Under the pieces are notes generated by a model. The model searched no databases, was not told the DNA's origin, and saw nothing but the letters and a program-made list of their open reading frames with translations. From Asterionella formosa (Eukaryota), in NCBI GenBank assembly GCA_002256025.1, contig NKIB01014858.1, forward strand, positions 1 to 40,160: a DNA stretch of 40,160 nucleotides, given 5' to 3'. A program made the translations under genes and the position numbers. The number at the start of each line of letters is the position of its first letter. Position 1 is the first letter of the stretch. This document shows positions 2,339-39,668 of this stretch, piece after piece.

Positions 2339-3934
2339 CTATCGTTGCACTTGTGCTAGGGCCTTCCAAACTCCCGTTTTGGATTTGAATCTAAGGAAAC
2401 TAGTAACGACCTGAGTAGCCATAAAGGCCGCAAGAGCCATCCATATTTGGTTCAATGAAACCATGTTGCCTCCTTTGCCCCAAAACTTGAGGAGTCCAAC
2501 ACAAGCAAAGTTGGCTAGCCACATACACCACATCGAAAACTTCCAGTCCAGTCCGCCCATGATAATTCCGTTCAAGGGATAAGCTAGACCTTTGAGAACT
2601 TGCGTTAGCAAGACGACAGGAAATATAGTGGATGCCGCATTTCGAATGTCCAAGTTCGTCGTCAAGCCCATAAGAATAGAATTTCTTTGCAGGTATGTTG
2701 TCAAGGACAACAAGGTAGCGACTCCTCCGCCAATCCAAATGGATTGTTGGATTAAGTGCTGAATCAATTTGGCTCGCACCGCTGGCGAATGCGACTGTTT
2801 GTCGGCAATTTCTCTGGCCAATAAGGTTTGAACGGACACAGCGACTGCTTCACATATTTGCGTCGTGGCAAATCCAAGTTGAAAAGTCAAATTGTAGGCT
2901 GCTGCAGCCACAGATCCCAGCATGGCAGCTTGACGAGCACAGACGGAGTAGGCCAGTACTTTGCCAAGCGTTCTAAACAGGACATATCCTCCCGCTTCCA
3001 TGTATGACTTGAGCGATGTTCCCAGTGCTTTGAGTTGTCCAAGAATATCAATGGAAACTTTTCGATTCAATGCCAGCATCAATGGAACTAATGCAATATA
3101 TTGCGCCAGGGCAGTTCCCGCTGCTGCTCCACTAGCTCCAAAGTTAAGTGTGAATATAAATAAAGGATCAAAAATCGCATTAAGCAGCGTAAAGCCAAGA
3201 CTGTAGATCAAAGGTGTTTTAGTATCACCAAGGCCACGGAATATGCCATTGGTAACCAACCAAAGAGTTGCGGCTGGGGTTCCAAGTGCCCGCACACGAA
3301 GGTAGGAGACCGCCGAATGCCACATGAGGTTCGAAGAATTCACACCCATGCCCCGAATAATTCCATTCGTCAGAAGAGAGTATACTACCATTTGAACAAA
3401 TCCAACAACAAATGCCAAGAGCAGAGCGGAGGAGACAGCGATCGATAGGTCCTTTTTGGCATCCTCTTCAGTAGTCTCTGTTCCCCTAGACTTTCCGTCC
3501 TGAGACGCAACGAGAGATATGGAAGTGCGCAAAAGGGGATCATTGTATAGCTTGGAAACTGCGTACTGAGCCGAAATAGCGACACCGGCTCCTCCCAATA
3601 CTTCAGGCCCAAGTCTTCCGAGATAGGCCGTGTCAACTAAACTTGCAAGGGGTTCGGCTGCTAGCTGAACGAAAGCAGGAAGTCCAATGGATAGAAATTC
3701 TCGAGATAACTTCTTCTTTAGGGCTGGGATATTTTCTTCTGGTTCAGTAGCAACATCAACAGCTTCTGCTTTCAACTGTACTTGTCGCTGTCGAGGAGAG
3801 GGAAAGCGAGGAACTGTCGTTGACAGCTTGTGTGGTATCCTTGATCCCGCCGGAATCACAAGAGCTTCTGATGCCGAGAATAGCAGCAAATTGGAGATAA
3901 TATGGAGAAGCACGCATGATGGTGGAAACTTCAT
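2339..3934 (-). CDS. MATE (DinF-like) efflux transporter, probably plastid-targeted, 531 aa
   Basis: Motifs EPLASLVDTAYLGRLG, GIFRGLGDTKTPL, FGASGAAAGT and GIIMGGLDW, with multiple TM helices. N-terminal signal peptide (...ASEA|LV) followed by a basic transit-like stretch. ATG at 3934. Confidence 0.92.
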   Translation of the reverse strand: MKFPPSCVLLHIISNLLLFSASEALVIPAGSRIPHKLSTTVPRFPSPRQRQVQLKAEAVDVATEPEENIPALKKKLSREFLSIGLPAFVQLAAEPLASLVDTAYLGRLGPEVLGGAGVAISAQYAVSKLYNDPLLRTSISLVASQDGKSRGTETTEEDAKKDLSIAVSSALLLAFVVGFVQMVVYSLLTNGIIRGMGVNSSNLMWHSAVSYLRVRALGTPAATLWLVTNGIFRGLGDTKTPLIYSLGFTLLNAIFDPLFIFTLNFGASGAAAGTALAQYIALVPLMLALNRKVSIDILGQLKALGTSLKSYMEAGGYVLFRTLGKVLAYSVCARQAAMLGSVAAAAYNLTFQLGFATTQICEAVAVSVQTLLAREIADKQSHSPAVRAKLIQHLIQQSIWIGGGVATLLSLTTYLQRNSILMGLTTNLDIRNAASTIFPVVLLTQVLKGLAYPLNGIIMGGLDWKFSMWCMWLANFACVGLLKFWGKGGNMVSLNQIWMALAAFMATQVVTSFLRFKSKTGVWKALAQVQR

Positions 3935-4161
3935 CACGTTGCTGAGATTTGGAGAGTGCGAAGGCAGAGTTGTGGGTGGGCTTACAATAGCAGAGGAAAC
4001 CGATACCGTACCCGGTACTGTATTTTATCCGGGTATTTGTTCAGGTATTATTATCGCTGGTATACGACGATGGTGGTGTAATAATGATCTTGTCCTGCCT
4101 GATTATCTAAAGATTGACCACTCAAACGGAGACCTGTCGTTGGGCCATTTATCTTCATATA

Positions 4162-4947
4162 TAGGGGCTCACAACTAAATCGCAAGTCCCCCCGAATACG
4201 AAGAATAATCCTGGTTGTTAACCTAATGAATATTTTTTGGGGTCATCCACGAAATTGACCCAATCCTCTTATTTCGATGAATAATCCTCGAATACTGTAC
4301 GAGGATTGGAAAACGTGGATTGTTCCACCAATCAGAGCCTTTTAAATGTTCATAATCACACCCGGATCAATAGTGAATCGTCATCACACACTGGTAATGC
4401 TATAGCATATCATATATTTGTTGTTTTATATCATTATAATTGTAACATGAAACGAGTACTCCACTGTCATTGTTCTGAATATTTCTTGAGTAATATCAAC
4501 AATGTGTCAAGCCTTGGAAGCAGCAGTGGTTGTCATGGCAACTACCAGCTGTGCGCTGTATTGCGCAATGAGCTCGTATCCCAGTTCTTTTCCAGTTTGG
4601 AGATAAGCTCAACTGCGAAAAAGCGCCAAATCGATGATCTTCACAACCAAACAACAAGGCTAAAGAAAATAGAAAGTAACATGCTCATGCTCCAAAGCAA
4701 GACTCATGATGGTGGAAGAAGTTCCTCACTGCCAGATGAAAAGTGCATTGTACAGATGGACCATGCAACATTGGGGAGCAAGAGATTTTTTGCAAATTTT
4801 TGGGTTGTATATAATGTATTCTGTTTGATGTATGATGTGACAATCTCAAAGGAATCATGGTTTGATCCATTGAAGGAAGATTGCACTATTCTTCTTGTCT
4901 GCAACAAGGATCTCGACTTGGTGCTCTTATTTGGTGCTGTACTATGA
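4162..4947 (+). mobile_element. Possible degenerate hAT-like transposon left end and transposase remnant
   Basis: TAGGGGCTCACAAC at 4162 resembles hAT termini and is followed by repeated AATCC/GGATT/GAATA motifs. The segment KKRQIDDL..LKKIESNMLMLQS loosely resembles stramenopile hAT-like proteins. No matching right TIR was found. Confidence 0.3.
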
Positions 4948-6769: not shown

Positions 6770-7054
6770 CGGAGTCTAATCGACCATAACCTGCAAGTGG
6801 CGGTAATTTTGCTAAACTAAAGATTTAGCTATTTTTATCCAAGATTTAATTGTTCATTTAAGCAAAATGACCGCAACTTGTTATTATTTGGTCGATAAGG
6901 GGGTCATCTTCAAACAAGACCAAAGCATATTTGGTCTTGGTCGATGTGTTGGCTAAAATATTTTTGCTTTTTCGACCAACACAACAAATCATGATGTGTA
7001 ATGACCCGCAACTTCAATTGGCTTGATATTTGGTCGATGCGGTGGACATGCTCT
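6770..7054. mobile_element. Probable DNA-transposon end (Tourist/Harbinger-like TIR with subterminal repeats)
   Basis: The terminus reads GAGCATGTCCACCGC on the minus strand, similar to Tourist-type GAGCATCTCCA. Five TGGTCGA/TCGACCA motifs occur at 6780, 6889, 6938, 6972 and 7031. The partner end was not found. Confidence 0.45.
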
Positions 7055-9550
7055 AGATACTAAGTGCAACCAATAATAATCCCTGCACATGTGCCAGACC
7101 AGCTGAAGGATCATGATGTGGTTGCAAATTCTGAGGTATGATACCAGTAGCCTGGTACCTGGTACCGGTACCAGAATATATTCTGCTTGGACTTTCTAGA
7201 AATTCTTGGATGTTACTCAGAGTAGCTGTTTTTCCTTTGGTAAGCAAACTTGAATTAGGAACTGAATCTCTGCTGGTGACCCTACCGTAATACCGGTTCG
7301 CAAAGAAAAGTACTCCCAACCCTAATGTACCACCCCTCTGCTGCTACAAATCATCAAGTACTGGTATCCAACCCTTATACTCCTAGCTAACCCTATATAA
7401 AGTACCATACCGTTGCTGAAGGCAAGAATACACGCCCTTGGTGGTCTCATGCCTGCGAGAACACATGTGTACGAGAAGGCGTGTAGCCACCGAGTAGGGT
7501 ATTGCTGAGGCAATTCACAAACTAGCTATCGTCACGCCATTTGCTTACCTACTGCCCACTCATCGAGTGTAAATGTCAATTTTAGCTCACTATAGTCCAT
7601 CATATAAGATATATTTCGTATATTTCCTATCTTCACATCGAAATTGGCAATGGGTCCGATATTGCCCATAGTTAAAATATATTTTGTGCATTTCCTATCT
7701 TCGCATTTTGGCATTACAATTTGTAGCAATTGCCCCTTGGTTTTCCAGCCCTGGGATTGCCGAAATTGGCAAGGGGTCTACTTAAGGAAGCCATTTTATA
7801 TACTCTGCAGATTTCAATAATTTATATCTAGAATTCACCTCTTTTTTGGTTGTCTCCTGAAAAGTGGTGGACTCTGGCAATTCACCTTTCACCATGCCGA
7901 TTGTCGTCCATCATGACCGGGTTGAAGCGAAATCAGTTCTAGTGATGACACCAGTAGCGATTCATTGTCTAACGGATATGGTTGGTTGTTGGATTGTTTG
8001 TCTTCTCGAGGGATTCATGTAGTCGCATCGTCCATATTTCGTCGGACGAATGATGATATTGATACATCTGATGTTGGCGGCAAGTTTTTGCTCCGGTCAT
8101 GCATGTGAGATGCTTATCGGACATTATACCAGTAGTCATCTAGCCTACATATGTACGTGGTACTTGAAACAACCATGGATGGTTTAAGCTAAACTTTAAC
8201 GCTTACTTTAAGCACATAATAATATTATCTCTGTAGACTCGGTATTATTTTTACGAGACCTGAATGTTAAATTGTATTGTTTACATATTGATTGATTCTA
8301 TGTACTAGCTATATGCCCGATTTCGTCCTCACAATTATAATTCTCGCTCTATCCTGCCTGCCGTTGCTCAATTTGGGCTTGTTGCAAAAGGAACTTTCGA
8401 CTTTCTTATGAGCCCATCGTCTGCTGTGTGTTACGCTTGTTAGAGCGGATCGGTGAGAACAACAGTGAATCACTGAATGTGATCATAGATAGTACTAATT
8501 GTCGAATTTCCGATTTGATTGCTTCCATGGTCCGTTTTGATCACTTCCATCGTTGTTTGTCGTTCCGCACTGTCGTTTTGTTTCGATTGTATCTATCTAC
8601 ATAAGAACCAGTGTATTTATCGAGGACTAGTACTCTTTGATGACATATTGTTGTTGATTGTATTTGTTGATGTGTATAGTCATTTCTTACCATGATGTCA
8701 ATCATATTGCCACCAAGCAATGCTTTTCTTGTACTAACGCGCTTTGCTAAATTTCTAATACGAGTTCGTATCACAAGCTACATAAATACTCAGCTAGAGG
8801 GGATCGATAGTAGTGCTGGAGCAGCTTGGCAATTACACTTGCTCAGAATGGAATGATCAGTGTTGTTTGGTGGGAGGAAGAACGACTGTGTGTGGAGGAA
8901 GCACTGCAAGCAAATTGGGTCAGGCTTTACAATGCAGATTTCAATTGGGTTGAGTTTTTTTCTTATCTGTTTTGTTTTGCTCTTTGATGTTGTGATGGAA
9001 AGTCATTGTTACCTGTGTACTAAGTGCTACAATGCATACGTTTCCATTGAAACTCCTATTTTTTACGTCATTTCTAACCCAAATTTTTTTCTATTTCTCA
9101 TTTGACACTACTCATTACATCGCATTTCATACTTTGGTTGCTCCAAACATCACGTTCAATTTTCATTGATGTTGCATGTTACAATCATTCTCGTGTGTTT
9201 TACGCTCGTTGTTCCCTTTTTATGTATTTTACCGTTATTCTGGTTGTCATGCTAAAAACGGCAATTTAATGCCGAAAAATTCGATATGCCCCATATTGCC
9301 CCTAAAAAAATTTCTTAACAAATTAGTTAGAGCCTAAAAATTACTTAGAATTACCCGAATGGCAAGACGATATGCGTAGCTTGAGCGGGAATTGCTGGCA
9401 AAACTGAAGTAGTCTACCACCCACACCCCTACAAAATATACCAGCGTACGATTGTGGATGCCCAAGCCAAGCAAGTGTTACACCTTTTTTTTTCACCGCT
9501 CTTTTCTTTCATTATGTTTTACTCCACGATTTATGCATGACACTGTGACG

Positions 9551-12601: not shown

Positions 12602-12799
12602 GCTTCGTCAATTATTTGATTTCATACCACGAAGGAGTACCAGGTACCAGGTTACTGGTACCAGGTACCAACAGTATGTACTGGTATCAAGAATCCACAC
12701 TACCAGGGTACCTGGTGCCATACCGGTATGAATATACGCGGTGTTTCTACCGGTATTGTCATTCATATTTCTTTGTTCATAGCAAATATATAACATATC

Positions 12800-15049: not shown

Positions 15050-18000
15050 TCAATCATCTTCATATTCGTCATCGTCAAACCCGAGCTCGTCCTCAACGTC
15101 CTCATCGTCAAGGTCTCCAAAGCCGTTACGTTGGTTTGCTTGCTCGCTTTTTACTTGTTCTTCGTATTCATCAATAACTCCTTCGATGCCTGCTCCGAAG
15201 CCAGAATCAACGAATTCATTCAAGTTTTCTGGATTCACCACTCCTACTTTCATCAGAAACATCATAGCGTTATCGACCTTTTGTATCAACGCCTTTAGTT
15301 CGTCCCTTGTAAAATCTTTGCTGCCAACAAGTTCACAACGGAAGAATTCAAGTTTCTTTGAGAATTCACTCTTTAGGTCACCACTCATACTGCCCTCGCT
15401 TGTGTACCCTTGCAACTCCTTGAAGCAAATATCAATTTGTTCGTACAATCCTGGGCCGTATTTTTCCTCATGTTCTGCGGCAAGCATAGGGAACCCTGAA
15501 TTCCGCAGGCGATACGGAGTATCTCGAAAGCCATTATCATACCAAAGATCTTTTACATATTCGTAATTGTAATACTCTCTCCACTTCTCCTTGGGGTCGT
15601 CAGTCTTGAAAAATGGTCCATCAGCTTGCAACTTTGCCATTGCTTCTTCTGGTAGGGGAACCATTTGATAGATGTCAGGGTGCCCATATCGAATCAAAAA
15701 CTGCAACTCTGGTGTCAAATCTGCTTCATCTGGATCGAGGGGGAGAGCAAGAGTGGGGAACCAGACGAAATCAAGGGCGCGTAAAAGAATAACCTTCTCA
15801 GGGTGGTAGGCGTCCAAAAAGTTTTGGAGTTCTCTAATTCTCTTGACAGATTTACCAATTTCATAACCAGCCAATGCTTCCGGCCATGGATCCTCATCAG
15901 GCATTACAAAGTCATCATTGACAAACAAATCGCCTCTGACAAGGTAGTATGCATAAAAGGCACACATTGCCTTCTCGAAGGGAATCTCCAAAAAGTACCT
16001 TGCATCACCCCAATCAAATCCAATCTTATCGAGCATTTTCTTTCTTTCGGGAATGTGTTTAACTTCTAAGCTTCCGTCACGAATGCGTTTAACAATACCA
16101 CCAAGAGGCATTCCGCTCAAGTGCTCAGGCCAGACACTTGTTCCTACAGTCATGGGTTTGGCCATGGTAGCCACCGCGACGCGATTCTGCACTGCGACCT
16201 GAGATTGAACCTCTTGCTGAAGGCGCTGGATTTCGAAAGCAATCAAGTCTTCGCTATCACTAAGACTTCCTGCTTCCTCAAAAGCAGCGATTGCGGCAGC
16301 TGCTCTTGCAGAGGCTTCGCTGTCAAACAATGACGAATCCTCTTCACCGAACAAGCTCGTCTCAGGAGCTGGAACCATAAAGTCACTACCTTGAACAGTT
16401 AAGTTAGAGAAATCCCCGTACATTTCTTTATAGACGGTCAGTGCTTCAACAACATCCTCAAAAACAAAGTTATCGCCAAAATCATCATTGAACCAGGGAA
16501 CGTCTTTCTTCTGTTTCCCCTTCTTCATTAGGCTAATATCATCACTGTATGAAAAAGAAAAAGAGGGGAACGTTAGAAATGATTTGTGCAGTGAAGCGGA
16601 AAATGACACCAATATCAAAAAAGCGCCTCACCCTGTATCCAAAATAATACCAACGGAAATTGCACGCGAGCGAGCTATTGCGAGAGATTCTTCCAGGGTT
16701 TGGGGAGGTACATATTCTACCTCTGTTGGGGGAGGTACTTCAGTAGGAGTTGTTCTTGATAAGGACGCCATAGATTCTCCAACAATGCCCCATGACGGCG
16801 TGCCGTTGTCATTCTTGAATGGATCATTGGACCCGAAATCAAATGAGGGGCCAAAAATATTCTCCATGGCCGATTCGGTAGTCTCCCAATCATATTCATT
16901 GTCATCCTCCATTGCAAAAGAGTCAGCAGCGGGCATGTTGGCCGTTTGCTCCGCATCAGCGGCCTCTTCTGCATTTGTTTTGCGGCCTCGTTTTCCTGCC
17001 CGATCCGAGGGAGGTGGGCTCCAAATAAAGCCAATGGAGTCTAGATCTTGTCGTCGCTCTGGGTTTGTATTTACAAACGTCCCTTGGCTTCGGATAGCGT
17101 TAACTCTAGCGCCAAGGCGCAGTCCCCAAGTCCTCTCTGGCCATTCCGGTGAATCCTCTGGAACGAAAAATGGTTGAGGCACAAGCAAGTCTCCGAAAAT
17201 TTCTTTATAACGCTTGAGTGCATCAAATACAATATCGAATCGAGAGTCGCTAGTAGCAGACTTTGTTTCCAGCTCCAGACCAAGATTGATTAACTTTTGT
17301 TCCGCCCCGGGATTCGCCTTGAGAAAAGATTTGGATCGCATTGAAACAATCGTTTTTCCAAGAGGGAGTCCTCGTGTTGACTGTGGCCATGGATCACAAT
17401 CTGGGACAATAAAGTTTGGAGGAATATGGAGCGTACTTCCAGTTGGGTGCTCCTTCCGATAGGTAAGGAGCGCTTCATAAATTTGGTCAAAGGTAACTCC
17501 GTCCATTTCCTCCTCCGCTGAGGCCGTTGTCCGGAGCCTCCACAAAAAGCCCAATCCATCTAGTAACTTTCTTCGTTTTTCATTATTTTGAATATGTTTC
17601 CCCGTGGCTCGTATGGCCGATACCTTGATGCCAAGTTTCATGCCCCAAGCTTTCTCTGTTTTTGGCAGTTACAACACATCCGTGGTGGCGTGAGTTAGTT
17701 AGTTACGGTGTCCGAGCAAGCGTGACTGTGCCAGCTCCTACAGGTAGAACGAACAAACACACACACACACACGTACCTGGCCATGGAGGCAAGGATGGTA
17801 CGATGAATCGGGAGGGTACTTTCAAGTCCCCATAGGCAGCCTTGTACATTTGAAAGGCTGCCACTAAGGCTTTCCACTCGTCGTCGTCCGCTTGCGCTTC
17901 GTTATTGTTCGTGGCTAGCAGTCTGAGAGTCCGTTGATGCGATACGGAGAATATGGAGGGCGGCCTCAGCAAGGAACCCATCAGGTCCACGCCTCGTGAC

Positions 18001-18095
18001 GCCGAGCCTGGCTGATGCAAGGAAAAGGCCGCAGCACAAGTGGCAGCGCAAACTGCTGCTGATGTAAACATTCCCACCGTACACCGAAAGCTCAT
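15050..18095 (-). CDS. Helicase-associated (HA)-like repeat protein without a helicase domain, probably plastid-targeted, 3 exons (18095-17777, 17655-16632, 16544-15050), about 945 aa
   Basis: Five repeats of type AL..YK..YGDL.VP..F.VP...WP....G..LG..V..IR......R...LD.IGF.W. Introns 17776-17656 (GTACGT..CAG) and 16631-16545 (GTGAGG..CAG) join the three ORFs in frame. Signal + AAA|FSL and an acidic C-terminus. Alternative start at 18071. Confidence 0.82.
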
Positions 18096-18742
18096 GCTTG
18101 TAGTCACATGCTCATGTCGCCTCGGAGGTATTCTCGTGTTCCTCTGTGTTTGTTGCCGTGTGTGCTCCATCATTGGGGTCAAGTCGGATTCCGGAAAATA
18201 CCGGTGGATGATACCGGTAATCAATTCAGTGGATGATGTCAATATTTAAAAGGGTTATCAGCCGGCAAAGGATACGGGCGCGTGCGTATCAAGGAGGGTT
18301 AAAATTGAGGCGCCAATGGGAGGGTCAAGCAATCCAAGAATTCGTGAGCTGCTCTACCGAGTTTTTGGATCGGGCTCTGCTGACATGGAGTGTTCAAGGA
18401 GCAACTGGAAGGACCAAAAGGCGGTGCCTTCAACAATCTGATGGAATTATGGTACCGTTAGTACCAGGAACGAAGCAAATGCGATGCGCGCCACGTTCTT
18501 TTCCTTTGGCTTTTTTCCAGACCGCCACAGCATTACTGTCGTCGCAGCCATCATCAGCATCAGTCCGAGGAAGGTCGATAAAAGGTTGTTCTATTGAGCA
18601 AAGTAAGCTAAATATCTCTACCGGACCTTCCAGCATGACAGTCATAGCGTCGGTACCGGAAACCTTGTATGTACATGCTGAAATGTGATTATATATTTTT
18701 AACCATGCTTGGAAATATATAAATATTCTCATCATGTTCATT

Positions 18743-19108
18743 TACGGTACCTGGTACCTGGTACCAGGTACTGTATGCACAGGGTATAGCGTTGAATTGA
18801 CTGGACCAGTACAATTTATTGCGATGACGACTGGGCGGAGCGAATAACAGCTGCTTGATGGGTCCCTGTCCGCCGACCGTTTGTCATACTGGACACCGTA
18901 CGAGTTCATATGTAGGTGCACACAGTTATGCGCTGGTACCTGGTACCGTACCAGTTTGATGTACCAGCATGCGTTTGGTGCTCCTGCTTCGGTACATACC
19001 GGTACCAGGTACCAGGTACTATCTGGTACCGTACCAGTCCTTTCCTTGCATACTGCCGGGTACATAGGAGTGTACGTGTTACCGGTACCAGGTAAAATAA
19101 GTACCAGG
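18743..19108. repeat. Dense array of TA-bounded CCGG/CCWGG/CGG/CTG units
   Basis: For example, 18743-18775 parses as TA-CGG-TA-CCTGG-TA-CCTGG-TA-CCAGG-TA-CTG-TA. Similar concatemers occur at about 18935-19035 and 19080-19108. Confidence 0.9.
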
Positions 19109-19377
19109 TTCTATGATACTAGCAGGCAGTAGGTATCATGGATCTTCGATTTTCGAAATCCATCGTCATGGTCATGGTGCAGCCATGCGTTGGGACGTTT
19201 TTGCCTCGACTACGAGATTTTATGATCTGCACAGTGGTTCCCAAATTCAAAAGGTTACGCACACAAGTATCATTTGCTTACACAGTACCGGTATTATTAC
19301 TATTCTAAATATAACTATAGACTGGCTTGACCCAATTCTTACAACATAGTAAAGAGGGAACTGTTCTATCTACCGGT

Positions 19378-22485: not shown

Positions 22486-22801
22486 GATAATGAATGAATG
22501 AAATGGATAATAGCAAACCGTAGAGGAGACAAAGTCAGTTGGTTTGTAAGGTAATGAGTAAATGAGCTTTTTCATACGACACTGCAAAAGTCGACATGAA
22601 TTTGTGCGGTCGGCACTTGATTCATCCGATTCCAGAATTCCGCCATCATCACACAGCAGACGACGACCCAAGAAATCCAGCAATTCGATAACTCACCGGA
22701 CCGGTACCAGGTACTCTCAAGATCAACATCATAAAAGCCTTTTCTCAACCCCTTCTCCCAATCATTTGAAACTGAAGACACTAAACATACTCGCCGCTAT
22801 C

Positions 22802-24381: not shown

Positions 24382-24877
24382 TCGGTGTTGCAGGCAAAGT
24401 AAGCGGTAACAAGAGGTAAGTTGGATCGACGTCTGTCCTCCATCCCCAACTACTTTTCAGGACGGTGAGCGAGACAGCAATGCATCATCATCATGTGATT
24501 CTTGTTCTACTTCCGGCAACTACGGGTACTGGCACATGTGAACGCCTACAATTATTCCCTCGTTTCCGATTCCCCTCAAGGGGCTATATACCGTTACATG
24601 CAAAGAAAAAGAAGCATTCTGATGATCTATGTGCGTATCGTCGTCTCATCTCACCCCGTATGTAGAAATCCTCATCATTTGGAGCATTATGTAATTATAT
24701 GCAGCGTGTGATGCAACAATACCGTCTAGGGGACATACTGTACCAGGTAGCGGTGCCAGGTACCGGTACCGGTATATCTACAGGATGAATAGCTTCATGT
24801 TGTCCCACAATGACGGCATGTCTACCGCTTGCTGAGTTTGACTCCAAGTTCCATCTCCTGTTCATCAGCTAATTACC

Positions 24878-28717: not shown

Positions 28718-30397
28718 ATGTTGCTTTGATATTAAATGAGGAGACTTCCTTGTTGACGATTCAGGAGTTCCATTTCTTTTCAGATACCACTGCTTCAGTT
28801 GTTTGGATGACTTATTGTTGTACCCCATCATATCTTGAAGGTCAATAGCATTTAACAATTTCTTATTGAGTGTAACAGTTATGCCTTGGTTTTGTTTCAG
28901 TATCTGGTGACTTTAAAGCAAACACACATATGCCGAAGTCGTTTGAGGGATATCTGTTGAATGGGTAGTATGTCTTTTATCATTGTCCATTGTCTTCCTT
29001 CCTTTTTCAATGAAAAAATCAGCAGGAGTGGTACTTGCAATTCACTGATCATCCAGTTTCCTTGGTGCAGAGTATCTTTCATTGTCTGAAGAATCAAATG
29101 ATGCCATGATGAGAAGTATTAGCAGCAACAACAAATAGCAGCAGTCATTGTTGAGTGATGACAACAAGCATAATTGCATTAGTAGTGATGATAATTGCTG
29201 TTGATCCCTCCTCCCACTATTCGTTTCTGTTGTTGCCATTAGAGAAAAAAATGGTGTCTTTGTTGATTATTTTAATTTCAAAAAATAAATGAAAATTAAA
29301 AAATAAGTGTTGCTTAATGCTGTATCTGCAGCAGCCAATACACAGAGCAGATACACATTTTGGAGCAAAAAAAGGGTTGCTGGAAGCATCATACCACCCA
29401 AATGTGTGCAATACAAAAAATTGGGCCTAACTACATTTTTAAAATTTTCATCCCCTAAGATTGTATATATGTCAAGTACTGTAATGAATCAAAATCGTTA
29501 ATACAACTCATTTCACAGTTCATGAAAAATGTGCTGTACTCAATTCTTCTTCAAACCCTGCCAACGTTGAGCTACTATCATCATCATAAAGTTTGACAAA
29601 ATCGGCCTTTTCAATTGTCCCCAAAATTCCGGAATCAGAATGACTATTCGCCGAAACGTCATCATCGAAATGGTAGTCTTTTGCTAAAAATTTTAGTTGT
29701 AAAATCTCCTGTACAAAAAGTTCCATTGTAAGGCCTGCTGCATTATTCATATTCTGATTGGTTATACTTACGTCTGTTCGATTGGCCTGGTTTGCGAGGT
29801 CTGCTTGCAATCCCACACCAGCCACACTGGATGCACATGCATTATTTTCATTGGTGTTGGCTGATGCTACTTGTATATCTACTACCTGGTACCAGTAGCT
29901 GGCTGATCATCATTTGTTATACTACGTAGTGAACACATACCAGCACATTACTAGAATGAACTTTCAAATATTTTTTCAAGCCGCAGGGTCATACATATGA
30001 AAAATATTGGTTGATCATAGAGTGGATATATGTACATTCAGTGATGAAGAATCTATACACATAAAGCAGTCCTTGTGACTGATGGTAATTATGCCCTGGT
30101 ATGCCATCTATGGGAACCTCATGTAGGCCAATGGTTACTTAAGGCATTTTCTATTTTCATTTCTTCACTTTTCTCTCTCTATATATATAAAGAGTTCTCA
30201 GTTCCAGGGAACTTTGGCAACCCTAAGCAATATTTTAATTTTTGCCTAGGGGTTGAAATGCTGGAACCTAAAGGGAAATAACAAAGTCAACTGTGAAAAT
30301 GATTTGATTCTCATCCGAAAATTAATTCTTCATTGCTAGAGTGATCCCCAACAATGTTCATCCCAGGGAGGGAAATCATGGAGAGCCTTTGGATCGA

Positions 30398-36324: not shown

Positions 36325-36890
36325 GCCTCAAATCCAATGCTCCTCCAGGTATTGGTAATTGTTTGAACTGTGACTCTGGCCCATGCCATTTCTACGCTTC
36401 CGCAACTAGCATAGAATTAGTTAGGTGCAAAAGTATACATACTCTAGAAATTACTATTGAAGCCATCACGAAGATTGGGCATGTCAGTGCACCAAAAATC
36501 GAAATTTGATTTATCCTTGAAACTGTTTAAACCTACATACTGGTAAAACAATATCTCTTTTAAATGTCATTGCTTATTTATGTTTTTGACCATGGAGAAA
36601 ATGGTGGTGAAGTTGGTTTCTTCATAAAATTGGCAATAGAAGACAGCGGTGATGTATTGCATCCCCCTCTAAATAAAATCAATCGTGGCTATGTATACAT
36701 TGAGGGGTACTCCCTCTGTTCATGTATAGTTACACCCAAACTTTGTGGCTTGGCAGATCATGAAGTGGAAGCTCCAACAATTCTAGAATTAGATAAACAT
36801 GACCTCAATTTTTTGGCGCGTTTTTCCTAGAATCGTGCCCCGATCGGAATGTTTGCTCTGGACTCCCCATCTGCAAATAGAAAGCATCTA
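36325..36890 (-). pseudogene. Decayed pogo/Tc1-mariner (DDE_1-like) transposase remnant
   Basis: Minus-strand fragments in the expected order: LFADGES, then QYVGLNSFKD (cf. QPLDVG.NKPFK), then MAWARVTVQTITNTWRSIGF (36389-36330, cf. AW..I....I.NSW...G). Many stops and frameshifts. Confidence 0.45.
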
Positions 36891-37182
36891 ATTCGTGTGA
36901 TGCATCTTATGATGGCGATCATATGATCATAAAAATTCGATTTATCATCTAATATGAGTAATATTTATTCTCAAAGAGAATATTGTGTATATATATATCG
37001 ATACATATATTTTTGTATGTTTACCATTACTGGCTGCAAACATCAACAACCGCTCAATGATCTGAATTTGAATCATTCGTGTTGCATTAGTTGGACAGTC
37101 GTACATGGGTATTTGTACGTCTCTGCTGTAGCAATCTATAGTTTAAAGGCATGATAGACATCCATACATGCATATGCATGGT

Positions 37183-37417
37183 ATGTAAAGTATGTACACG
37201 ATTGATTTGAATTTTAATCATGCCCGTCATAGGGACACCTATATATGTAGCACACATATTTTTGCATGTAAAAGTATGTACCAGTATACGATTGATTTGA
37301 ATTTAAATCATGTCCATCATAGTGACACCTATATACCGGTATATTGCACAGATATTTGCATGTAAACGTACTACGTGTACGATAGATTTGAATTTGAATC
37401 ATGCCCATGATAGGGAT
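37183..37417. repeat. Imperfect tandem repeat, about 2.7 copies, period about 90 nt
   Basis: The anchor AT(T/A)GATTTGAATTT recurs at 37201, 37291 and 37382, each followed by ATCATG.CC.T.ATAG.GA. Confidence 0.9.
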
Positions 37418-37533
37418 AGGGTTAGAATTAGGGAGTGACTTTGGTATATCTATGTAAAGGGGATTGAGAGGGTACGCAATATCACGTACCAATAGTCATA
37501 CAACAATGTGGCATTGCTATCTGTTGGTTATGA

Positions 37534-37736
37534 AGGGGACGCAATAATACTTTCTCGTACAAACAAGGTGACATTGGTACCTATTGTCACCTCGTACTCA
37601 AGCTACAACACGTACTTGTACAGACAAGGTGACGACATTGTATCGTCTATTGGTGATGGATGGGACGCAATAACACGTTGTTCTTGCTTGTACAAAGAAG
37701 GTGACATTGATGGCTATTGTCACCTCATACTTAGCT
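37534..37736. repeat. Imperfect direct duplication containing an AGGTGACA..TGTCACCT hairpin
   Basis: GGGACGCAATAA...AAGGTGACATTG...CTATTGTCACCTC.TACT occurs at about 37536 and 37662. Confidence 0.8.
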
Positions 37737-37738
37737 AG

Positions 37739-37951
37739 GTTAAAAGTAAGATCAAACGAGCTAAAAGTTTTTACCTGTGATCTTATTTATTGGCAATCAT
37801 ATCTAACCAGAAAGTATGATCTGTAATTTTTTAGTAGTAAGATAAAATCCTGTTAAAAGTAAGATCAAAAAAGCAAAAAATTGTTATCTGTGATCTTATT
37901 TATGCATTGGCAATCATTTCTAACCAGGACGAGGAGAGATGATCTGTAATT
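37739..37951. repeat. Imperfect tandem duplication, period about 113 nt
   Basis: GTTAAAAGTAAGATCAAA...CTGTGATCTTATTTAT...TGGCAATCAT.TCTAACCAG...ATGATCTGTAATT begins at 37739 and 37852. Confidence 0.88.
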
Positions 37952-38980
37952 CATAACGATTGATTCAAGCGATTCATCTGCCAGTCAATTTGTACCATAT
38001 GAAAAAGGTCGTATGACTCCCGCTTATTGAGGGGCTTAATTAAATTACTTACTTGTAGGTACAAGAATTGATGCGGAAAAATTCAAAAACAGTACATCAG
38101 GTCATGGAAAACAATGATATCCTCATACATTGTATATATTTGAATAATGAATAAGCTTAATTGATGATTGTATCCACATTATGTGTTTATATTTATACGT
38201 TTTCAAAATTTTATAAATGTATACATAGGCTATAAAAACATTTGAAATCATGTTTAGAGGTTCCTTGTTATGCATACCGGTAACACATGATCCTGAAATG
38301 AAAGATCATCTCTGCACTGTGACAAGGAACACTGAAAGAACGACGCTTCAACACACACAATGATGATAAACCTTGCGGCTTAGAAGGATTGAAAATGGAA
38401 AAGTGAACTGAATCTAGCTATGGTATAAAACAGTAAAAAGTAAAATTACAATCCATTTCAACGTATTTTTAACAAATATTTCAATTAGGGTTACCATCAT
38501 AGAAGGATAGATATATGATAAAAGAATGTACATCATAGGATAATGTTTTGATAATTATATGGTGGTTTGATTATTATGAGTAAAGGGTCGTTCTTATCAT
38601 TTTCGATTTGGTATCATTTTTTTTGAAAAAGTATCATGTAACGGCTACTCGATTTAAACCAAAAAAATCCATTCTCCACAAAAATAAAAATGAAATTGTA
38701 TCACCCAAAAAGTATCACGAAAATTCAACGGTTACGGGCTGGCTACAATCATGTGCATATCCCTCCAGGCTTCCCTCCAGATTATTTCGATAATTTTCCA
38801 TTACTAAAACCATGTTGGAAAACTACGCGTATTATGTAGCAGTATGGAATATATAGCTGACATACCTGCTTAATTCTTGATTTGCCATGAGTCAACACAG
38901 ACATGCAAGATCCTCTATACACTTCTTCTTACACTTCCGCTTGCCATCATCCCCTTTCAAGTTTACAAGCAATCAGCACC

Positions 38981-39668
38981 ATGTCATCATTGTCAGTGCA
39001 CAATGACGAACAAGTGGATCAACATTGGACTGAAAAAGGTGCCGTGAATATCAACGATGGCAATGATGATGATGGTAATGATGTCATCAGTAATCAATTT
39101 TTTGATAATGAAAACAACCATCAATTCTTTGATTACGATGACCATGATCAATTCTTTATCCTTTGTCATCTGGCTCTGGAGGCTGAAACGAAAGTTAAAA
39201 AGAGGAAGGCGAAATGGGAGCATGAGAGAATGTCATGGCATTCTCATGTCAAGAAGCTGTGTCATGAGGACGCATTTGAAAAGACTTAAAGAATGTCCCT
39301 TCGAGCCTTTAAGAAGTTGGTTCACTTACTGGAGAGTGATGTCATTGGAAATTTCTCCAAGTGCGGTACAGCTACTCCCATTTACCCAGAAATTGTGCTG
39401 GCCATTGGCATTCGATGGTTGGCTGGAGGCAGCTACATTGACATTCGTCATGCCTATGGATGTAGCATAGCTTCAATCTATAGATGCCGAGATTTATTTC
39501 TTGAAGCCGTGCTTAACTGTGATTTGGTGAAATTGGCTATAGCCTTTGAACAAAAGAGCACAGAAGGGTTGATCAGAGGGTGTGTTGGTGCTATTGATGG
39601 GTTTGCAAAGACCTCCAAGTAATATTGAAAGAAAAAGCTTGGAATTACATGAATTAAATTTAATGTAG
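38981..39668 (+). pseudogene. Harbinger (HARBI1/DDE_Tnp_4-like) transposase pseudogene
   Basis: FEKT*RMSLRAFKKLV, EIVLAIGIRWLAGGSYIDI...YG and GCVGAIDG. Premature TAA at 39287. The sequence jumps from GAIDG to a C-terminus-like GLQRPPSNIER in another frame. The start is approximate. Confidence 0.85.

Follow-up and report, generated by a model that had tools for sequence, protein, structure and literature searches.

Repeated DNA of the diatom Asterionella formosa carries two classes of short insertion: TA-CC(A)G(n)-TA at TA sites and, in greater numbers, NN-G(m)C(n)-NN, which occurs at nearly every dinucleotide. We read both as scars left by the excision of cut-and-paste transposons, with untemplated G residues added during end-joining, and put the probability of this reading at about 0.6. 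The window, i.e., the whole 40,160-nt stretch of contig NKIB01014858.1, holds examples of both classes within a tandem repeat and its surrounding element:

37183 to 37416, plus strand: internal tandem repeat of a ~90-nt unit in 2.5 copies, seen in all 30 family copies examined.
37279 to 37286, unstranded: site A, TA-CCAG-TA, fixed in the family (CCAG in 29/30 copies, CCAT in 1/30); units 1 and 3 are without the word.
37334 to 37341, unstranded: site B, TA-CCGG-TA, fixed in the family (25/30 CCGG; the single-base variants CTGG, CCAG, CCTG, CCCG and CCGA occur once each); the local units do not polarise it.
37369 to 37373, unstranded: TA-C-TA in unit 3, which is 3 nt longer than unit 1 there; a putative family-fixed scar of the G(m)C(n) class.

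The earlier note on this DNA had described a duplication in which the second copy carries two hexamers missing from the first, and had taken this as empty-site/filled-site evidence that the motifs arise by insertion at TA. The extra words were placed correctly (CCAGTA at 37281-37286 and CCGGTA at 37336-37341), and each consists of a 4-nt core plus TA, directly 3' of a TA. A third, partial repeat unit, which that note did not use, is present as well (TRF: period 90 nt, 2.5 copies, 37194-37416). Unit 1 is without the site A word in every family copy that aligns there and, since unit 3 is also without it, the simpler view is that unit 2 gained the word; site B is unpolarised, because unit 3 stops before it and an upstream partial unit has TA-CCAA-TA at the matching place. 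That upstream unit has been removed from the window copy by a 104-nt deletion. The internal comparison polarises site A and not site B, and as both hexamers occur in unit 2 of all 30 copies, they are older than the spread of the family and provide weaker local evidence than was stated. As a general claim, insertion at TA stands: aligned family copies contain TA-core-TA insertions, with 7 of the 14 minority insertions of 6-7 nt among the 30 copies reading TA-CC..-TA, and the genome has source elements with TA duplications and CC...GG ends. The larger scar class at non-TA dinucleotides and a length series of G runs were absent from that note; the G-run series suggests that the cores are in part of non-transposon origin. 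On a tree of 27 of the 30 copies (the truncated L011, L018 and L019 were omitted), a subfamily insertion in unit 1 takes three changes.

Words of this kind are strongly over-represented in the window, where TACCGGTA occurs 22 times against ~0.35 expected under an order-2 Markov model; in a 236-kb sample its density is about one per 3 kb. CCGG and CCAG/CTGG are the two commonest of the 224 TA-N4-TA words in the window, and only 7 of 49 occurrences of the three commonest TA-CC..-TA kinds lie inside long ORFs, which span roughly half of the sequence. CTGG and CCAG are minority variants at three CCGG sites of the host family, so that some CCAG/CTGG words can be attributed to CpG decay of CCGG; site A is never CCGG.

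The element that carries the tandem repeat is present in the window in two pieces:

36868 to 38426, plus strand: 5' portion of a DNA transposon of Plavaka type (CMCT clade), non-autonomous and ~2.85 kb long in its complete form, beginning CATCTGCAAATAG (family CGTCTGCAAATA).
38436 to 38583, plus strand: remnant of the 3' subterminal region of this element, which has lost ~0.8 kb internally and is truncated by another element, beginning GGGTCGTTCTTATC at 38585.

A search of the 68-Mb assembly gave 40 scored matches to this host family among 81 candidates, and 30 copies were examined. The window's DNA is also found in public sequencing runs with freshwater and algal labels. Full copies are ~2.85 kb long, with ends CGTCTGCAAA...TTTGCAGACG, and their 2-bp target duplications vary in sequence, the two sides agreeing in 8 of the 9 full copies; for a nested member of the family, the 2-bp duplication was verified against empty sites. 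Larger elements with the same ends (L100, L102) have DNA 87-90% identical to the PF18759 (Plavaka) loci L131 and L107, and the shared ends together with this identity identify the host as a non-autonomous Plavaka derivative. A Pfam search with the broken ORFs of L100 and L102 gave no Plavaka match. One of the larger elements, of 15 kb, has a Ty3-like LTR retrotransposon nested within it (L100-L101, G000:C1251).

Other elements and genes were also seen. The one that truncates the host (window 38585-39470, end GGGTCGTTCTTATC at 38585, plus strand) follows a TAA-like site, as does an element end GGGCCGTTCTTATC at 105-122 (ending at 121, minus strand). The broken ORFs at 38891-39470 gave no Pfam match but contain a motif that makes them look like a PIF/Harbinger transposase. 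Three consecutive minus-strand ORFs at 15050-18245 share a repeated 'F..P....WP....G..LG' motif and are presumably exons of a single protein with helicase-associated-domain repeats. A TTAA-flanked family with GGTTGC ends (L098 582-1185, L205 3818-5020, L069) is probably Kolobok-like.

Comparison of the 30 host copies with the family majority gave 193 distinct indels, made up of 123 insertions and 70 deletions. Insertions of 3, 4 and 6 nt number 47, 26 and 13, against 2, 3 and 4 deletions of these lengths. Among the 3-nt insertions, 43/47 read as a duplicated dinucleotide around one base and 17/47 are perfect duplications; in the unambiguous ones the core is C or G in 23 of 26 (p=2.5e-8). At 4 nt, 14/26 are NN-GC-NN and 1/26 NN-CG-NN. 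The long allele is the minority state in 47/49 three-nt and 26/29 four-nt events. Scars of both classes account for 63 of the 123 host insertions when plain duplications that fit the pattern are included, and private scars stand to private substitutions as 56 to 1007, or about 1 per 18. Four private NN-class scars and one of the TA class were found in the window's copy:

37057 to 37061, unstranded: AT-G-AT insertion, private to the window copy (1/22).
37487 to 37494, unstranded: TA-CCAA-TA insertion, private (1/28), probably a mutated TA-class scar.
37684 to 37689, unstranded: TT-GC-TT insertion, private (1/24), which a plain 4-nt duplication also fits.
37732 to 37737, unstranded: TA-GC-TA insertion, private (1/23).
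37902 to 37907, unstranded: AT-GC-AT insertion, private (1/23).

A private 6-nt insertion at 37419-37428 produces TA-GAAT-TA within a telomere-like TAGGGTTAG stretch and fits neither scar class.

The same pattern is found outside the host family. With that family masked, 793 unpolarised indels from other repeats gave C or G cores in 77/84, GC in 64/135 against 3 CG, and TA-CCGG-TA in 6/40. The whole sample of 1404 indels was drawn from ~0.9 Mb of the 68 Mb, picked around queries and repeat-rich, and perfect duplications were excluded from the main counts. In this set, cores of the form G(m)C(n) make up 142/230, 92/192, 6/37 and 2/89 of the indels of 3, 4, 5 and 6 nt (null expectations 15, 5.8, 0.27 and 0.2); those at 5 nt are GGC and GCC and those at 6 nt GGCC and GCCC, the counts of long cores being small and two of the six 5-nt cases also readable as a 3-bp duplication plus GC. 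The reverse order, C(m)G(n), was seen in 0 of the 37 five-nt indels. Among 164 four-nt indels there are 79 GC and 5 CG cores, while simulation produced GC parses in 1.0% of random insertions, 1.6% of deletions and 15% of slippage events. The 89 non-perfect 6-nt indels include 19 TA-CCGG-TA and 6 TA-CCAG-TA. In repeat DNA, 3-nt indels are as frequent as 1-nt indels or more so; the near-identical contig pairs L013/L014 and L140/L142 (99.95-100% identical) have no allelic indels.

That Plavaka elements are the main source of the NN class is on balance likely. The terminal motif of the host's family (CGTCT) occurs 600 times in the genome (control 2) and that of a young family, CATCTAAG (CATCT), 751 times (control 1); a member of the latter, L143, matches PF18759 at 1.3e-10. 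Young-family targets at 33 junctions are TA (13), CA/TG (8), AA/TT (7) and other (5), compared with TA 26, AA/TT 21, CA/TG 11 and other 21 for 79 GC-core scars. The two distributions do not differ significantly (p=0.35; p=0.17 with both Plavaka families pooled), whereas GC-core targets are far from background (p=5e-21). The targets of single-base cores fit weakly (p=0.053 for the young family, p=0.044 pooled), and both kinds of NN scar differ from the targets of the host's CGTCT family (p=0.002-0.004; GC cores p=0.004); pogo elements may add TA-C/G-TA scars. No allele pair of a filled site and its scar was found for either class: unfilled paralogues, 209 sequences in all, were available for 56 of the 154 insertion sites, and these gave one candidate, a TA-C-TA where Plavaka is inserted, from a copy with no more than 85% identity, with about that many expected by chance. 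Scars greatly outnumber resident elements, so that long and repeated hopping would be needed, which counts against the excision reading. That the terminal C might be a flap retained in some cases only is contradicted by 751 ends with the C against 5 without, and CCTTCAATCTG, considered as a second inverted-repeat family, proved to lie inside the coding region of the young Plavaka family. In L143 an intact ORF of 461 aa (7038-8420), with no Pfam match, adjoins the transposase of that young family, and L135 contains a ~1.5-kb element (3143-4652) with near-perfect inverted arms of >230 nt.

The TA-CC(A)G(n)-TA words are very probably excision scars of pogo-like elements. DDE_1 has 93 matches in the genome, and two pogo-like families have CCGT...ACGG ends between TA duplications, one of them with copies that are 99-100% identical; a third ends in CAGT...ACTG. 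Genome counts of CCGT and CCAC ends are 415 and 227, with controls across the four end motifs counted of 0-2. A CCAC...GTGG family is inserted at TA in 27 of 31 cases, and its broken ORF has no Pfam match, its nearest relatives being DDE_1 clusters (score 0.95). Genome searches for a mariner-type source with DDE_3 and Transposase_1 gave 0/16 candidates and one weak match below the cut-off. A young pogo-like family of ~2.46 kb (L034-L043, L050, L051, L056) has many contigs that break at one internal position, and its recent copies have probably been collapsed in the assembly. Leucine-rich-repeat-like coding fragments, possibly captured host sequence, lie next to or inside CCAC and Plavaka elements (L241; L064 2651-3309).

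CCAC insertions adjoin an existing scar at 14 of 27 TA sites, compared with 786 of 25,999 background TA sites (3.0%), while such adjacency was seen in 0/24 CCGT and 0/13 Plavaka insertions. CCAGG words are mostly stacked (isolated in 48/283) and CCGG words mostly isolated (244/327), and the re-insertion bias and the stacking together connect the CCAC family with CCAGG words and GGTACC arrays, and the CCGT families with isolated CCGG words. We infer a feedback loop in which CCAC scars would build up into GGTACC arrays. One CCAC copy (L030) lies at the edge of a scar array common to its sister copies. A stacked array in the window is:

12637 to 12755, unstranded: stacked scar array, including TA-CCAGGG-TA at 12701-12710.

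GGTACC-rich intergenic scar arrays are found in the window at 7140-7179, 12637-12755, 18746-19110, 22695-22714, 24741-24777 and 29870-29897; they are often near gene starts and are consistent with re-insertion of the CCAC family.

The composition of the cores indicates that the extra G residues are probably untemplated additions. In the NN class the cores include G, C, GC, GGC and GGCC; retained ends of C...G elements would give CG and not GC, and these cores cannot come from such ends, whereas dG added to the 3' end of each flank places G before C. At TA sites the series CCA+G(n) is represented by 191, 241, 44 and 4 sites for n=1-4, and the full fill-in, CCATGG, by 3. After clustering by flanks, CCAGGG occurs at 22 independent sites against 0 for its mirror CCCAGG, and CCAGGGG forms 3 clusters against 1 for the mirror word. 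The opposite element end supplies GG at most, and the proposition that TA cores hold retained terminal bases only failed, because CCAGGG and CCAGGGG exceed what CCAC...GTGG ends can supply; CCGG, CCAG and CCAGG alone would be compatible with it. Derivation of CCAGG from CCGGG by CpG decay was rejected, since it should yield CCCAG equally often (5 against 113 clusters).

A candidate for the proposed dG-tailing enzyme, judged from its sequence, is the one Pol X gene found, L262 (G000:C14752:8651-10912), which is lambda-like with a long N-terminal region and a long basic palm loop ~28 residues longer than that of human Pol lambda. It is closest to Pol lambda, has a YF motif, and carries Gly at the diagnostic position, without the His of TdT and Pol mu. 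The marks of the TdT/Pol mu branch, as set out in the part of PMC12828229 available, are a His before the catalytic Asp, a GW motif and a long loop 1, of which the Asterionella protein has the long loop only. The same source links long loop 1 to terminal transferase activity, which is also present in one fungal Pol X that has Gly there.

The scheme that we propose starts from abundant families with C...G ends and 2-bp target duplications, some of them young: pogo-like CCGT, CCAC and CAGT elements at TA, and Plavaka CGTCT and CATCT elements at many dinucleotides. Insertions in which a short core is flanked by a duplicated dinucleotide distinguish one repeat copy from another, and the longer allele is usually the minority and derived state. 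By known Tc1/mariner chemistry, pogo excision would leave CC or CCA 3' overhangs on both flanks and, by kinship with RAG and Transib, Plavaka excision would leave flanks ending at the duplicated dinucleotide. A polymerase would then put 0-3 dG on each 3' end. Such dG tails would produce NN-G(m)C(n)-NN where Plavaka has left; where a pogo element has left, the tail could pair with the opposite CC overhang to give TA-CC(A)G(n)-TA, which would also explain the rarity of full fill-in. The observed preference of CCAC elements for TA beside old scars would finally cause their own scars to stack as GGTACC arrays.

TdT prefers G/C in its additions. As a whole, we tentatively liken the system to a heritable, genome-wide analogue of the V(D)J coding joint, a comparison that may well prove too bold, in which a RAG-related Plavaka transposase would make the breaks and a non-vertebrate polymerase would add almost only dG; the same tailing would create microhomology at pogo breaks, between them the two processes would explain roughly one in two distinct small insertions of the repeat DNA examined, and landing pads would be built by one pogo family from its own scars.

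Several other explanations were weighed against excision with G tailing. All cores might be left-over transposon ends, the NN class coming from an unseen GG...CC-ended family with 2-bp duplications (ISL2EU/PHIS-like) and CCAGGG from another whose two ends differ. G-ended elements do exist in the DNA sample (GGGTCG, GGCCGT and GGTTGC starts), and 1-3 terminal bases left behind are the textbook route (as given in the accessible part of PMC3878927), but these families are inserted after TAA/TTA-like or TTAA sites, which cannot yield CA/TG, AT, GA and AC targets, the 1404 indels contain no TAA/TTA-duplication class with G/C cores, and the families with unconstrained flanks in the sample, which is biased to the queries, all end in C. 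As two separate unseen families would be required, this explanation seems unlikely. Replication slippage, or microhomology deletion from longer ancestral words, could account for the 17 perfect duplications among 47 three-nt host insertions and is compatible with the unpolarised site B. Perfect duplications were left out of the main counts, however, and slippage predicts ~15% GC and 11% CG parses, and random deletion 1.6% GC, where 48% and 3% were observed; the minority status of the long alleles (47/49 and 26/29) and the 0 against 22 clusters for CCCAGG and CCAGGG, which slippage should make equally frequent, leave it hardly credible.

Breaks of a different origin are considered rather improbable as the source of the NN class. 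Spo11-type cuts leave a 2-nt 5' overhang, and non-transposon breaks of such a stagger, filled in and G-tailed, would give NN-G(m)C(n)-NN. In favor of this, no scar allele could be linked directly to a Plavaka copy, and the ratio of scars to private substitutions (56 to 1007 in the host family, ~1 per 18) is high for transposition; against it, the dinucleotides at scars agree with those hit by the young Plavaka family and are far from background, and the genome has >1300 Plavaka ends (CGTCT plus CATCT). Alternatively, a hairpin at the Plavaka flank might hold the terminal C, with opening on the 5' side and fill-in inverting C to G to produce G, C and GC cores with no untemplated synthesis. The excess of GC over CG (79 to 5 among 164 four-nt indels), the C...G ends of every Plavaka family seen and the position of Plavaka within the RAG1/Transib clade, as stated in the portion of PMC12730594 at hand, speak for it. 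Yet hairpin opening cannot produce GGC, GCC, GGCC and GCCC (8 cases), nor the CCA+G(n) series at pogo sites, and plant CACTA scars instead carry inverted flank bases, to judge from the supplement of PMC6379663; we regard it as quite improbable.

Scars of the TA class belong to a type already known, TA-bounded Tc1/mariner scars being standard in the part of PMC3878927 available, and what goes further is the Plavaka-type scar class together with the proposed dG tailing. Of the 123 distinct host insertions 63 are scars, which would make 3-nt indels so frequent in repeat DNA, and half of the scar lengths preserve the reading frame. For Plavaka, a RAG1-related clade of which we found no account of the chemistry, the reading predicts what excision products should look like. 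If dG-specific tailing does occur in algal end-joining, it would bear on the origin of terminal transferase activity, and G-biased outcomes of genome editing would be predicted in such diatoms.

Among open-access papers and preprints, no description was found of Plavaka excision scars, diatom excision scars or G-biased repair in diatoms, and the portions available of PMC9674265 and bioRxiv 447870 contain no scar sequences. The footprints of Tc1/mariner elements (Sleeping Beauty C(A/T)GTA, Himar1 ACTA; PMC3878927, in part) are alike in having a TA duplication around a short core that starts with the terminal bases of the element, and the resident elements here are DDE_1 (pogo-like) with TA duplications. 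They differ in that the core in Asterionella extends as a variable G run beyond the supply of the opposite end (TGG or CGG), full fill-in is rare, scars are dense and one family re-targets its own scars. An active CACTA element, ATENSPM3, is a major source of indels in Arabidopsis lines (PMC6668482, in part), and Pack-CACTA1a leaves varied scars at an AAG duplication, mostly inverted flank bases or deletions (PMC6379663); in contrast, both target copies are intact here, and G precedes C in the core irrespective of the flanking sequence. Fungal PlavakaB, according to the section of PMC12730594 available, has CATCA ends and 2-3-bp duplications and is grouped with EnSpm, Transib and RAG1. The Asterionella families share with it the PF18759 transposase and the 2-bp duplication and have CATCT/CGTCT in place of CATCA ends, while the host copy here is a non-coding derivative; Plavaka also occurs in the red alga Bostrychia, from a source available in part. 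The N-addition that TdT performs at breaks, among them V(D)J coding joints (PMC3458542, in part), is alike in that untemplated, G-rich bases stand between ends that would be joined after cleavage by a RAG-related enzyme. It differs from the additions proposed here, which are almost pure G, 0-3 nt long, heritable and genome-wide in a unicellular alga whose sole Pol X found is lambda-like and not TdT-like.
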